A model generated the notes under the pieces. It made no database searches. It saw only the letters and a program-made list of their open reading frames with translations, and had not been told where the DNA came from. A program made the translations under genes and the position numbers. This document shows positions 1-23,265 of a DNA stretch of 23,376 nt, one piece after another; the first letter of the stretch is position 1, and the number at the start of each line of letters is the position of its first letter. This DNA comes from a candidate division WOR-3 bacterium (lineage in GTDB: Bacteria > Hydrothermota > Hydrothermia > LBFQ01 > DSFT01), in contig CBFGJN010000027.1 of assembly GCA_965649115.1 (NCBI GenBank), forward strand, positions 1 to 23,376, given 5' to 3'.

Positions 1-126
1 ATACCCATTTTTTGCCTTTGGGGGGCAGAGCCCCCCTAATAATCCCCCCATAAAATCTATAATTTCATTAAAAATTTTATAAATTATTGATTATCAATCG
101 CTTAACAATAATTATTGGACAAAGCA
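1..126 (+). mobile_element. MITE-like element copy A (3' part; cut by window start)
   Basis: Ends in right TIR ATTATTGGACAAAGCA (126). Contains the GGGGGC-AGA-GCCCCC hairpin and the palindrome at 80-104. Nearly identical to the reverse complement of 20585-20711. Confidence 0.85.
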
Positions 127-134
127 TTTCTACC

Positions 135-297
135 TGCTTTGTCTAGTAATTCTGAAATATAGATTATTTCTTATTTTGCCCGCCCACCCTGAAAATAAGG
201 CTTCGCCTTATAAATACCCGTTTAAATCTATAATTTCCTCAAAGCTTTTATAAGTTATTGATAATCAGGGATTTAACAATAATTATTGGACAAAGCA
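135..297 (+). mobile_element. MITE-like element copy B (163 bp, intact TIRs, 8 bp TSD)
   Basis: TGCTTTGTCTAGTAAT...ATTATTGGACAAAGCA termini; flanked by TTTCTACC at 127-134 and 298-305; nearly identical to 15976-16139. Confidence 0.9.
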
Positions 298-305
298 TTT
301 CTACC

Positions 306-392
306 TGCTATGTCTAGTTTATTTTATTATATTTTTCCCACTCTATATTCAAGGCTTCGTCCCCCTTAAATTCTCCCCATTAAAACAATAAT
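306..392 (+). mobile_element. Decayed MITE copy C (left end kept, right end lost)
   Basis: Starts TGCTATGTCTAG; contains degenerate CCCACTCT, AAGGCTTCGTCCCCC and AAAACAATAAT modules. Right boundary approximate. Confidence 0.7.
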
Positions 393-412
393 AGTGTCTT
401 ATAAATAAGCCT

Positions 413-418
413 TATAAT
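413..418 (+). promoter_or_regulatory. Putative -10 box (TATAAT) 9 nt before the apbE ATG; leaderless-type
   Basis: CTTATAATTTTCAAAAT-ATG; no Shine-Dalgarno; same arrangement at other operon-first genes. Confidence 0.6.
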
Positions 419-427
419 TTTCAAAAT

Positions 428-1129
428 ATGGAATTGCTACTAAGAGCACAATTTATAATGGGAAGCATTTTAAAAATAGGAATAATTCAAAATAATCCAA
501 ATTCAGAAATTGCAATTGATTCTGCTTTCAAGTATGCTAACTATTTAAACAGAATTTGGTTTAAATTTTACGATAATTTTGTCGCAAATAATGATACAAT
601 AATTGTTGAAGATGAAACTGATGAAATCCTAAATCTATCATTAAATTATATTCAAATAACTGATAGTTTATTTAATCCGTTTTACAAATCAAAAGGCTTA
701 TTTCCAATTAAAATTTCAGAAAAACGATGGTTTTTCCCAAAAGGATTAATAATTGATTTAGGAGGAATTGCAAAAGGTTATTTAGTAGATAAAATTAGGG
801 CTATTATTTTAAGTTTTGGTATTGATACCTTTTATATAAATTTTGGCAATAGTTCAATATATTCCCAAAACTACGAATTAAACCTTTATGATGAAACATT
901 TGGAAATTTTAAGATAAAAAACAAAGCAATATCTATATCTTCAACAATAAAACCTATTGAAAAAAAATTTCATATTTATGATCCAAAAAGCCAAAAACTT
1001 GTTAAGAAAAGAAGAAAAGTTCTTTTAATTTGTGATAAAGCGGTTGAATGCGATGCAATATCAAAAGCCATAATAATAAATCCAAAATTAAAAGAAAAGT
1101 TCAAATGGATAGAAATAAGAATAAATTAA
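428..1129 (+). CDS. apbE: FAD:protein FMN transferase (ApbE family), short form without signal peptide
   Basis: IDLGGIAKGY motif, N-terminal FIMGS, HIYDPKS, and CDAISKA resembling ADALST. Confidence 0.85.
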   Translation: MELLLRAQFIMGSILKIGIIQNNPNSEIAIDSAFKYANYLNRIWFKFYDNFVANNDTIIVEDETDEILNLSLNYIQITDSLFNPFYKSKGLFPIKISEKRWFFPKGLIIDLGGIAKGYLVDKIRAIILSFGIDTFYINFGNSSIYSQNYELNLYDETFGNFKIKNKAISISSTIKPIEKKFHIYDPKSQKLVKKRRKVLLICDKAVECDAISKAIIINPKLKEKFKWIEIRIN

Positions 1130-1153
1130 ATTTAAATCTATTTCTTTGAATAC

Positions 1154-1246
1154 AAGCCTTCGGCTTATAAATACCCCAACTTTTGCCTTTGGGGGCTCTG
1201 CCTCCCAACTAAATCCCCCCAAGGAAATTATAGATTTTATAGGGGG
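1154..1246. repeat. Internal MITE fragments in opposite orientations between convergent apbE and ileS
   Basis: 1154-1220 matches the + strand internal module (AAGCCTTCGGCTTATAAATACCC...TTTTGCCTTTGGGGGC...AATCCCCCC). 1221-1246 is the reverse complement of CCCCCTATAAAATCTATAATTTCCTT. Confidence 0.75.
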
Positions 1247-1257
1247 TGAATTTTGTT

Positions 1258-20804: not shown

Positions 20805-20810
20805 TAAAAT
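20805..20810 (+). promoter_or_regulatory. Putative -10 box (TAAAAT) 9 nt before the mscS TTG
   Basis: GTTTAAAATTTTAAACTT-TTG; no SD. Confidence 0.55.
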
Positions 20811-20819
20811 TTTAAACTT

Positions 20820-21779
20820 TTGGAAACAATTTTAAAAATTTCAATAATTCTCACAATAGCTTTTGTAGTATTTATAATTTTAAGGTCATTTTTTTTATTT
20901 ATTTTTAGAAGTTCTTTCTATTTTGATATTTTAAGAAGAATTTTTGGATTTGGAAGTATATTAGCAATACTGTCTTTTTTGACCTATTTGTTCTTTCATT
21001 TCTCTCAATTTAAATATGGAATAATTTTTGAAAAGTTATATGCTTCAATTTTTGTTTTTTCATTAGCATTAGTTATATCAAATTTAACTATTGGATTTTT
21101 AAAAATTTATGTTAGATCAAAAAATATCATTTTACCTCCCTCGGAATTTGTTTTTGACATCATAAAATTAATTTTCTATACTTTGGGATTTATTACAATT
21201 TTGAATATTTGGAATGTGCCTATTATACATTTTATTACAACATTTGGTATTGGAGCACTTGCCATTTCTCTTGCATTACAAGGAACACTTTCAAACTTCT
21301 TTGCAGGTCTAAACATTATTATATCAAAAAATTTAGAAATAGGTGATTGCGTTAAACTTGAAAATGGCGAAGAAGGAACAATATCAGACATAACCTGGTT
21401 AAATACAATTATCAAAAAACCTGATGGAACATATATTATCATCCCGAATTTAAGGCTTTTTAATTCTATACTAATAAATTATAAGAATTTGAAAGATTTA
21501 AAAATTATTTCACTACCAATAAAAATTAGCTATTTTAATGACATTAAAAAAATTGAAAAAATTACATTAGAAGTTCTTGAAGAAATTTATAATAATTCAA
21601 CTAACATTGATAAAAGCTTTAAACCATCTTTTAAATTCCTTGAATTTGCAGATAATTATATTCGTTTTAATGTTTATCTTAAAGTTTTAAATTATCAAAA
21701 TAAGGAAGCATTAATTGATGAATTTTTAAGAAAGTTGAAAGAAAGATATGATAGAGAAAGTGTAATTTGGTACATTTAG
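20820..21779 (+). CDS. mscS: Small-conductance mechanosensitive channel family protein
   Basis: Multiple TM helices; GIGALAISLALQGTLSNFFAG, IGDCVKL, IIIPN. Confidence 0.92.
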   Translation: METILKISIILTIAFVVFIILRSFFLFIFRSSFYFDILRRIFGFGSILAILSFLTYLFFHFSQFKYGIIFEKLYASIFVFSLALVISNLTIGFLKIYVRSKNIILPPSEFVFDIIKLIFYTLGFITILNIWNVPIIHFITTFGIGALAISLALQGTLSNFFAGLNIIISKNLEIGDCVKLENGEEGTISDITWLNTIIKKPDGTYIIIPNLRLFNSILINYKNLKDLKIISLPIKISYFNDIKKIEKITLEVLEEIYNNSTNIDKSFKPSFKFLEFADNYIRFNVYLKVLNYQNKEALIDEFLRKLKERYDRESVIWYI

Positions 21780-21948
21780 TGCTTTGCCCAATAAATGATA
21801 ATAAGTCCTTGATTATCAATAACTTACAGAAATTTTAAGAAAATTATTGATTTAAAGGGGGGATTTGCCCCCCATAGCCTAAAAATGGGCATTTATAAGC
21901 AGAAGGCTTAAATTCAGGCTAGAACTTTCAGAATTATTGGACAAAGCG
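21780..21948 (-). mobile_element. Single MITE copy (169 bp) with perfect 9 bp TSD
   Basis: TGCTTTGCCCAATAA...TTATTGGACAAAGCG; TACATTTAG at 21771-21779 and 21949-21957. Confidence 0.92.
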
Positions 21949-21953
21949 TACAT

Positions 21954-22943
21954 TTAGTTATTTTTAGTTTGATTTATACTTAAAAGCTTTATATAAAGAT
22001 TTTCAATATCTGTAGGAAATGGGACTTCAAAAGTCATTTCTTCATTTTTTGAAGGATGAATAAAAGATAATTTGTACGCATGAAGTGCTTGTCTATTTAT
22101 TGTATTTAAAATTTCATTTACAATTTCTTTATATACTGATGGAACTATTCTAAAAATTTTTCTTGTATCTCTACCACTGTAAACTTCATCTCCAATTATA
22201 GGATAACCTAAGTATTCCATATGGACTCTTATCTGATGTGTTCTTCCAGTATCAAGTTTAAGTTCTAATAGTGAAGCAATTTCTGAAAATTTTTTTAAAA
22301 CTCTATAATGTGTAATAGCTATTTTTGAATTTAATGGTGTTATCGTCATTCTCTTCCTATCAACGGGATGCCTCCCAATAGGTGCTATAATTGTTCCTTT
22401 ATCTTTTATACTCGTTCCCCAAACGAAAGCCTTATAATATCTTTTCATAATTCTTTTTTGAATTTGTTCTGCTAAAATTTTAACTGAATTTTGTGTTTTA
22501 GCAATAACCATTAATCCACTTGTATCTTTATCAAGTCTATGAACAATCCCTGGCCTTTTTCTATCTGTTTGAAATTCTAATAATTTTTTTAAAACAGCAT
22601 TTACTATCGTTCCTCTAAAATGTCCTTTTGCAGGATGAACAACAATACCAGGTGGCTTATTTATAACAATTATTTCATCATCCTCATAAACGATTGGTAT
22701 TTCAATATCCTCTGGAATTATTTCTTTTTCTTCCTCAACTTCATACTCAACGAAAATAAAATCACCTGCTTTAACTTTATATGATGGTTTATCAATTACT
22801 TTGTTATTAACTTTAACTTTCCCTTCCTTTATAAGTTCATTAACCTTACTTCTAGAAAGTCCTATCCCACTAATGGTTAAATAAATATCAAGTCTTTTAC
22901 CTTCACTATCCTTTTGAACTTTTCTTTCAAATGTCTTAATCAT
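21954..22943 (-). CDS. rluD: 23S rRNA pseudouridine synthase RluD
   Basis: N-terminal S4 domain (RLDIYL...SRS), NKPPGIVVHP, RPGIVHRLDKDTSG, TGRTHQIRVH, RQALHA. Confidence 0.93.
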   Translation of the reverse strand: MIKTFERKVQKDSEGKRLDIYLTISGIGLSRSKVNELIKEGKVKVNNKVIDKPSYKVKAGDFIFVEYEVEEEKEIIPEDIEIPIVYEDDEIIVINKPPGIVVHPAKGHFRGTIVNAVLKKLLEFQTDRKRPGIVHRLDKDTSGLMVIAKTQNSVKILAEQIQKRIMKRYYKAFVWGTSIKDKGTIIAPIGRHPVDRKRMTITPLNSKIAITHYRVLKKFSEIASLLELKLDTGRTHQIRVHMEYLGYPIIGDEVYSGRDTRKIFRIVPSVYKEIVNEILNTINRQALHAYKLSFIHPSKNEEMTFEVPFPTDIENLYIKLLSINQTKNN

Positions 22944-22951
22944 AGTTTAAA

Positions 22952-22957
22952 ATTTTA
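22952..22957 (-). promoter_or_regulatory. Putative -10 box (TAAAAT) 8 nt before the rluD ATG
   Basis: Minus strand reads CCTTTAAAATTTTAAACT-ATG; no SD. Confidence 0.6.
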
Positions 22958-22978
22958 AAGGCAGAACCTTATCTTTTG

Positions 22979-23155
22979 TGTTTTGTCTAAGAATTCTGAA
23001 ATATAGATTGTTTCTATTCTTTGCCCGCCCACCCTGTAATTAAGCCTTCGGCTTAAACTTCGCCCCCTTAATCCCCCCATTATTTCAAGTATTTCAATGA
23101 ATTTTTTATAAGTAATTGATTATCAATCACTTAACAATAATTATTAGACAAAGCA
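22979..23155 (+). mobile_element. MITE copy (177 bp)
   Basis: TGTTTTGTCTAAGAAT...ATTATTAGACAAAGCA; hairpin AAGCCTTCGGCTT at 23042-23054; palindrome at 23109-23133. Confidence 0.88.
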
Positions 23156-23164
23156 TTATAGATT

Positions 23165-23265
23165 TGCTGTGTCTAATAATTCTAAAAATATGATTCTACC
23201 CTGAATTTAAGTCCTCGGCTTATAAGCTTTGTCCCCCTTAAAGCCGCCATAAAAACAATAATTTC
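23165..23265 (+). mobile_element. Decayed MITE copy (left TIR kept), 9 bp after the previous copy
   Basis: Starts TGCTGTGTCTAATAATTC; degenerate AAGTCCTCGGCTT; right boundary approximate. Confidence 0.7.

Follow-up and report, generated by a model that had tools for sequence, protein, structure and literature searches.

What is the short repeat that occupies the larger intergenic gaps of this 23,376-nucleotide stretch of DNA, what moves it, and how does it come to lie where it does? The stretch, called the window below, is one whole contig (C27) of a 1.85-Mb genome (G000; 27.6% G + C, 94.5% complete) of candidate division WOR-3, a name also carried by the proteins nearest to its sigma-70. We find that the repeat is a miniature inverted-repeat transposable element (MITE) of a known superfamily with an unusual and well-supported target rule, by which it stands at a fixed distance from promoter-like boxes. 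We put a probability of roughly 85% on the whole reading developed below, in which a MITE mobilized by an IS5-type insertion sequence (IS) is directed to this distance at the moment of insertion and accumulates there in stacks.

A preliminary description of the window had placed copies of a MITE-like family at seven loci, in both orientations, and had predicted hundreds of copies genome-wide. A hidden Markov model (HMM) of the element returned 14 matches at these loci, two of which are one copy, and both orientations were borne out; the four direct repeats that had been named all lie at their places in the sequence, and the remaining gene junctions overlap or are less than 20 bp apart, as claimed. 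Across G000 the predicted hundreds materialized as 732 HMM matches at 473 loci, amounting to 96 kb, or 5.2% of all bases in the genome and one-third of the non-coding ones. The single terminal inverted repeat (TIR) consensus stood in part: the TIRs are real, but the two ends are not alike (TGCTGTGTCTAGTAATT and TGCTTTGTCCAATAATT), which matters for orientation. The consensus built from 109 full-length copies is 205 bp long, with TG...CA ends and imperfect TIRs of 16-17 bp, and TIR-like matches number 1011 across G000 versus 103 in a shuffled genome. Flanking direct repeats, which had been offered as a test against chance, clearly exceed it: exact 9-bp repeats flank 101 of 264 two-ended copies (0.6 in a permuted control) and exact 8-bp repeats a further 11 (control 0.2), the target-site duplications (TSDs) being 9 bp and sometimes 8 bp. 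The element is thus short, bounded by TIRs, free of a transposase and flanked by TSDs above chance, as is expected of a prokaryotic MITE. A comparison of the window with Rfam found nothing; RNA folding was seen for a single strand of one copy (z -3.7), the other strand showing none, and the TIRs and internal palindromes are enough to account for it. Among 272 genomes of the phylum, the TIR pattern was matched 460 times in G000, 128 times in its relative G002 and six times in G013, with single matches elsewhere. The MITE also fragments the assembly, 83 of the 198 contig ends of G000 lying within it; other repeats break contigs at the ends of C1/C66, C32/C35/C74, C4/C43, C14/C48 and C47/C80.

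That the family lies in the large gaps was a correct observation, but the copies are not mere gap filling: they are oriented, at a fixed distance from promoter boxes. In 149 of 164 gaps between co-directional genes they point one way, in 8 the opposite way, and 7 gaps are mixed. The promoter-side end, which is the counterpart of the right end of the IS described below, lies 21 or 22 bp from the start of a TAWAAT hexamer at 163 of 247 gene-facing ends; other positions hold about one end each, and opposite ends at 21-22 bp number 5 of 107. The same two distances were found for 11 of 16 IS right ends and, in a 375-kb sample of G002, for 14 of 24 promoter-side ends and 0 of 18 opposite ends. In the window, the elements and boxes are arranged as follows, with the basis of each call given where it was recorded.

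1..126, plus strand: MITE copy truncated by the contig start (model positions 81-205); HMM
127-134 and again 298-305, plus strand: 8-bp spacer or TSD TTTCTACC; sequence
135..297, plus strand: MITE copy with an internal deletion and both TIRs; HMM
306..392, plus strand: degenerate third array copy; by eye, no HMM match
1147..1238, plus strand: internal MITE fragment (model positions 57-146) in a convergent gap; HMM
4003..4008, minus strand: TAAAAT box of an Ile-tRNA-ligase-like gene that starts at 3993, the MITE end being 21 bp away; motif
4030..4197, plus strand: MITE copy between AAAAAATA repeats (4022-4029, 4198-4205), promoter-side end toward the gene at 3993; HMM
15948..15953, minus strand: TAAAAT box of a gene for a Cys/Met-metabolism pyridoxal phosphate (PLP) enzyme that starts at 15938, the MITE end being 22 bp away; motif
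15976..16139, plus strand: promoter-proximal MITE copy of an array; HMM
16149..16286, plus strand: second array copy, with GATTATTTC spacers on either side (16140-16148, 16287-16295); sequence
16289..16390, plus strand: remnant of a third copy; HMM
20269..20274, minus strand: TAAAAT box of an acetyl-CoA-synthetase-like gene that starts at 20262; the array, in minority orientation, has its far-type end 21 bp away
20296..20402, minus strand: degenerate copy, with outer repeat TATACTAAA at 20287-20295; HMM
20412..20575, minus strand: copy with an internal deletion, with spacer ATTTTCTAC at 20576-20584; HMM
20585..20790, minus strand: full-length 206-bp copy, with outer repeat TATACTAAA at 20791-20799; HMM
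20805..20818, plus strand: two hexamers before an MscS-like gene, TAAAAT at a distance of 14 bp from the MITE end and TAAACT at 22 bp; minor register
21780..21948, minus strand: copy between convergent genes, flanked by a perfect TSD, TACATTTAG (21771-21779, 21949-21957); box-less, off-target insertion; HMM
22952..22957, minus strand: TAAAAT box of an RluD-like gene that starts at 22943, the MITE end being 21 bp away; motif
22979..23155, plus strand: promoter-proximal MITE copy, with spacer TTATAGATT at 23156-23164; HMM
23165..23278, plus strand: degenerate distal copy; HMM

Three promoter-side ends of the window thus stand at 21, 22 and 21 bp and one at 14 bp, a far-type end stands at 21 bp, and one copy is box-less. 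A fifth direct repeat, TATACTAAA, flanks the entire array at 20296-20790. We also observed that the spacers at 127-134 and 20576-20584, which belong to two arrays, have seven bases in common, in opposite orientation relative to the elements, and that adjacent copies in these arrays are 92-97% alike; a past rearrangement or coincidence may be the cause. Contig C61 carries a further occurrence of the spacer at 23156-23164, and the TSD at 21771-21779 includes the stop codon of the MscS-like gene, so that the first base of the element directly follows the stop.

The box, CTTTAAAATTT, lies 12-17 bp before the ATG of 140 MITE-free genes, with no -35 consensus, and at a further 140 such promoters an element end lies 11-26 bp upstream. 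It is also present upstream of orthologues in MITE-free relatives; the box at 4003..4008 stands before the orthologue in MITE-free G001, and that at 15948..15953 is found in G001, G003 and G004 too. From its distance to the ATG and its presence at MITE-free orthologues, it is most likely the -10 element of a leaderless host promoter, and the motif positions suggest that transcription in this genus is mostly leaderless. Upstream of the tRNAs of G000, TAWAAT occurs within 35 bp in 33 of 45 cases.

The 8-bp TSDs go with the shorter of the two distances (6 of 12 at 21 bp versus 2 of 41 at 22 bp; p=9e-4), which points to the promoter-proximal cut, 13 bp upstream of the box, as the fixed one. Most of the minor distances appear to follow the same ruler on an overlapping hexamer, since at 14, 15 and 16 bp a second TA is found exactly at 22 in 19 of 29, 6 of 9 and 4 of 6 cases, respectively (p about 1e-5 to 4e-5). 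A plain TTTAA repeat was considered as the cause of the minor register and set aside (p=0.16), the TA-at-22 test having explained it. In the 14-bp class, TGC stands just after the duplication in 15 of 29 cases versus 32 of 166, an enrichment that argues for a second, local preference.

What, then, moves the MITE? The six TIR matches in G013 all lie about 126 bp from contig ends and lead into an IS5-type reading frame; the element there is of IS5 type, in six copies, with nearly the same TIRs and TSDs of 8-9 bp. With the G013 fragment as query, a like element was found in G000, where 10 left and 16 right IS ends stand at contig ends and lead into the N- and C-termini of a transposase, the body of the IS being collapsed and not assembled. 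Its TIRs are nearly identical to those of the MITE, and beyond the terminal 18-26 bases the two have little in common; seven of the ten left ends could be paired with right ends by their TSDs (six pairs of 9 bp and one of 8 bp). A database protein of 300 amino acids, which matches both the N-terminus and the C-terminus of the G000 IS, scores 245.5 bits against the IS5-family profile NF033579 (cut-off 140) and contains PF13737 and PF01609. Among 85 sequences, D115, E256, R252 and K263 are invariant and D194 and Y249 nearly so, which gives a DDE triad (D115/D194/E256) with a Y-R-E-K motif, and the transposase follows the spacing Y-x2-R-x3-E-x6-K, which we take to be the IS5-type signature. The predicted fold resembles those of DDE transposases, the 300-residue model has no extra DNA-binding domain, and a search by sequence found no solved relative. 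The nearest named protein is an 'IS5-like element ISHysp1 family transposase' of Hydrogenivirga (43% identity), IS relatives with the same TIR measure 1080 and 1093 bp, and the partner TIR resembles those of ISAba12 and its relatives; the profile and these TIRs presumably place the element in the IS903 group of the IS5 family. Taken together, the sequences strongly indicate that the 205-bp MITE is moved in trans by the transposase of this resident IS5-family (IS903-type) element. The gene for this transposase starts 12 bp after a TAAAAT box in the IS left end (contig C50; L145, 260-290), and it would thus use the leaderless promoter type of the host.

The earlier proposal of a non-autonomous TIR element served in trans by a DDE transposase is upheld by a partner with the same ends, at the strength just given, whereas its candidate source families, IS1, IS1595 and IS256, gave way: no such transposase was found in G000, and the positive evidence leads to the IS5 family. 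IS1595, IS1, IS256 and IS6 were each tried as partner and rejected (PF12762 in 0/1, PF03400 in 0/5, PF13610 in 0/5 and PF00872 in 1/5, the last in G003 with different ends). A search for ISLre2 (PF06782) gave a match in 0/7 genomes of the family, and the IS4/IS5 search of G000 with PF01609 missed the IS5. The blanks for IS1, IS1595, IS256 and IS6 carry little weight because the bodies of multi-copy ISs are unassembled, and PF01609 likewise missed the collapsed IS5. A longer element with the same TIRs around a transposase had also been anticipated; long TIR pairs within contigs, tried as the autonomous element, enclosed ordinary genes and no transposase, whereas the IS ends turned up at contig ends. 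A metagenome scan with the G013 end was empty, one with the G000 end brought up nothing beyond a further MITE copy, and a genome-wide 16-mer scan gave mostly chance among the matches listed (at least 100). The transposase itself was matched in 6 of the 272 genomes of the phylum. On contig C103 of G003 there is a decayed IS256-family remnant with unrelated ends. Records of Marsarchaeota and Micrarchaeota contain IS5 elements of 1.08-1.09 kb with the same TIR, together with a 279-bp internally deleted derivative, which hints at exchange between archaea and bacteria.

From these observations we propose a mechanism in which the transposase of the resident IS would move the MITE in trans, making two staggered cuts in the target. 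The promoter-proximal one would fall 13 bp upstream of a TAnnnT -10 hexamer, counted from its first T, and the distal one another 9 (sometimes 8) bp upstream. The element would then end 22 (or 21) bp from the box, with the end that matches the IS right end facing the gene, in keeping with the orientation counts. The box would mark the same 9 bases after insertion, later copies could re-enter there and push older ones outward, and such re-entry would build head-to-tail stacks with repeated spacers, a pattern that the array statistics below bear out. A weaker preference for TG just after the duplication may account for some other sites. Since these promoters have no -35 consensus, the host box would stay intact, and insertion is probably near neutral.

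Is the distance set at insertion, or is it what selection has left? Among young copies, defined as at least 95% identical to another copy, 38 of 52 stand at 21-22 bp, and among old copies 66 of 141. Two IS copies stand at 21 and 22 bp inside the TIR of an older copy, and one IS lies inside the coding sequence of a TrmB-type tRNA methyltransferase, 22 bp from an internal box (ends on C88 and C76); the gene is intact in G001, G002 and G004, G002 carrying the TSD once, and the interruption could be a strain variant. Because young copies are the more exact and the IS within a gene keeps the same distance, target choice looks to be set at insertion and not by later selection. That near-random insertion into AT-rich DNA was followed by purifying selection, leaving copies just upstream of -10 boxes, would fit a compact genome in which 0 of 473 MITE loci lie wholly within a called open reading frame (ORF) and box-less insertions exist. 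Yet we consider it very improbable, because the peak is only 1-2 bp wide and oriented, and because the old MITE DNA, some 96 kb of neutral target, holds copies nested in opposite orientation at 7 of 860 typed ends as against 109 exact tandem junctions, in addition to the exactness of young copies and the distance kept within a gene. Nor would selection have a hybrid promoter to favour: the TTGACA-like TAGACA of the element would lie 27 bp from the box, and such a promoter was rejected for the main class. The arrays raise a related choice. Of 50 cases of neighbouring copies, 49 are head to tail. In 33 of 45 arrays (sign test, p=0.002) it is the copy on the promoter side that has the nearer relative elsewhere and so appears the younger; this copy is also more often full-length (26 versus 10) and is the younger in 25 of 37 arrays when both have a neighbour (p=0.047); and the promoter-side TSD is repeated as the first inner spacer in 25 of 46. 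Arrays might instead have formed mainly by recombination, gene conversion, movement of dimers or composites, or insertion next to an existing end, as is suggested by matching outer repeats around a foreign inner spacer in 7 of 46 arrays (the window array at 20296-20790 is of this type), by eight spacers that recur at separate loci and by an IS on the far side of the MITE in two of seven paired IS copies. We regard this as unlikely: in the arrays that repeat the promoter-side TSD the neighbours are unlike and, of 24 such arrays, 18 have the younger copy in the proximal position, and a composite or recombination origin covers a minority of arrays and leaves the fixed distance of single copies unexplained.

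For the way in which the site is found, we favour capture at promoters occupied by RNA polymerase and sigma over direct reading of the DNA, while giving it no better than even odds; a complex prediction for the transposase with sigma-70 residues 295-541 scored 0.00 and speaks neither for nor against. A second system bears on the question. In G255, from another WOR-3 family, a related IS (34-49% identical in pieces) and a separate 159-bp MITE, which have TGCTTTGTTGAATAA ends and are like the G000 element only there, land 6-8 bp before a TTGACA -35 box. Among 70 ends (drawn from 74 pattern matches and counted with duplicates removed), the distance from the end to the start of TTGAC is 8 bp in 24, 7 bp in 4, 6 bp in 3 and 5 bp in 1, and 17 of 22 complete copies have TTGAC so placed at one or both ends; the two TIRs are identical and either end faces the promoter. 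Offsets of 8, 7 and 6 bp go with TSDs of 9, 8 and 7 bp (6, 1 and 1 copies), which points to a fixed proximal cut there too. The cut in G255 also abuts TGACA, near the IS903 target half-site, and this keeps alive the rival reading in which element and insertion targeting are the same and the transposase itself recognizes the DNA, as sequence or as A-tract shape, with no host protein. The same reading can draw on the palindromic preference WTTYA-N9-TRAAW around the 9-bp TSD listed for IS903 (Table 1 of PMC2577343), on the 9 bp by which the registers of the G000 and G255 systems differ relative to the -10 box, on the TrmB-type box within a gene, which is not known to be transcribed, and on the TG that follows the duplication at 20 of 53 sites outside 21/22 versus about 3 expected. 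We allow it a substantial minority chance. Against it, the information in G000 lies 11-21 bp beyond the duplication, with little in the adjacent bases; the 21/22 class shows no enrichment of IS903-type flanks (TG in 6 of 185); the register follows a TAnnnT hexamer; the 300-residue model is without an extra DNA-binding domain; and two lineages home to different promoter elements that match the promoter types of their hosts. Returning to polymerase capture, we tentatively suggest, at a little short of even odds, that the WOR-3 IS903-type clade docks on promoter-bound RNA polymerase with its cut tuned to the promoter type of the host, at the -10 box in hosts whose promoters have no -35 and at the -35 box in those that possess it. 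In a third WOR-3 family (G126, G116, G124), which has related ends, TTGAC follows at 7-8 bp in two of the six ends that could be evaluated.

We stress that several observations weigh against the reading as a whole. The term 'promoter' is founded on motif position, 12-17 bp before the ATG and before tRNAs, and the full transposase protein comes from a database record, the IS body being unassembled in G000. No transposase homologue was found in G002 despite its many MITE copies, and in the G013 IS TAnnnT stands at 21-22 bp from 0 of 12 ends. Among promoter-type ends, 127 of 482 fall in no class; the 13-bp class is without a second TA (0 of 6); and two clean insertions have no box (21780-21948 in the window, and C4:35714 of G000). 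Foreign spacers occur in 21 of 46 arrays, from which it follows that recombination or composite movement also acts. Finally, of the 11 sites in G002 that were called empty by script, only one is by eye a clean single-TSD empty MITE site.

That last count comes from a comparison with the 375-kb sample of G002, in which 111 loci had a flank match: 85 one-sided, 6 shared and the 11 called empty. The check on empty sites in a relative, which the preliminary description had advised, thus came out in its favour with one clean MITE site and one IS site. Synteny breaks coincide with MITE loci in 18 of 32 cases; the MITE was rejected as their cause, MITE-free relatives differing upstream of the same genes too. 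A small excess of TSD swapping between distant copies (25 versus 3-12 in controls) is confounded by contig breaks and is not claimed, and no usable empty allele was found among the matches listed from contigs of four DNA sequencing runs. Elsewhere in the window, a D12-class adenine methyltransferase lies beside a 282-residue ORF that has no Pfam match (16414-18353), probably a restriction-modification pair, and ORFs with sequence motifs of a multi-heme cytochrome c, a cytochrome b-like and a Rieske-like protein (9859-12964) form a probable bc-type complex operon.

How does this system compare with those already known? It shares with the IS903 group the PF13737 and PF01609 domains, the NF033579 profile, a DDE triad with Y-R-E-K and a 9-bp TSD. 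ISC1058, which is the partner of the Sulfolobus MITE SM3, we also take to be an IS5-family element. SM3 is likewise a MITE of a thermophile (164 bp) dependent on a resident IS (PMC3718332); it differs in having few copies and, in the part of that paper available to us, no described promoter targeting, the comparison being with its description and not its sequence. IS903 differs in that its palindrome hugs the TSD, as far as the available part of PMC2577343 describes it, whereas the determinant here is one-sided and 11-21 bp away. MITEAba12 and ISAba12 offer the closest likeness in the available portion of PMC6382973: a short, ORF-less MITE that has only 16-bp TIRs in common with an IS of about 1 kb and makes 9-bp TSDs, the ISAba12 TIR, GGCTTTGTTGCACAAA, being near that of this MITE, TGCTTTGTCCAATAAT. 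According to the same portion, MITEAba12 differs in size and number (113 bp and at most 22 copies per genome versus 205 bp and about 470 loci), in its terminal G versus T here, and in its AT-rich targets with no sequence trend; it describes no fixed promoter distance, and the word 'tandem' is absent from the text of the paper. Insertion in a set orientation and at a constant distance from promoters is common to our element and to the TnGBS integrative and conjugative elements, ISLre2 and ISKra4 (p-MULT 3 and 4), which differ, in what we could consult of PMC3942029, in that their transposase is Mutator-like, their terminal base is C and they insert 15-17 bp upstream of -35 boxes; our element ends in T, and its insertion point is the -35 region itself in G000 and the upstream edge of that region in G255. 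A search of the literature open to us, outside ISfinder and subscription journals, turned up no account of this MITE or of an IS5-family element that targets promoters at a fixed distance.

For bacteria, the literature searched attributes promoter targeting at a fixed distance to Mutator-like transposases alone; the present case belongs to the unrelated IS5 family, has single-base precision and spans at least two WOR-3 families. If the docking of the clade on polymerase is true, promoter homing would have arisen in bacteria a second time and independently, through a 300-residue enzyme without a targeting subunit, and the MITE stacks would record the order of insertion at individual promoters. 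A polymerase-guided mechanism would be testable with a small single-protein system, and the enzyme might be put to use as an integration tool that spares genes. For the organism itself, the target rule would explain how a 1.85-Mb genome can consist of 5% MITE DNA with few broken genes, and the insertion sites may map promoters in an uncultured phylum.

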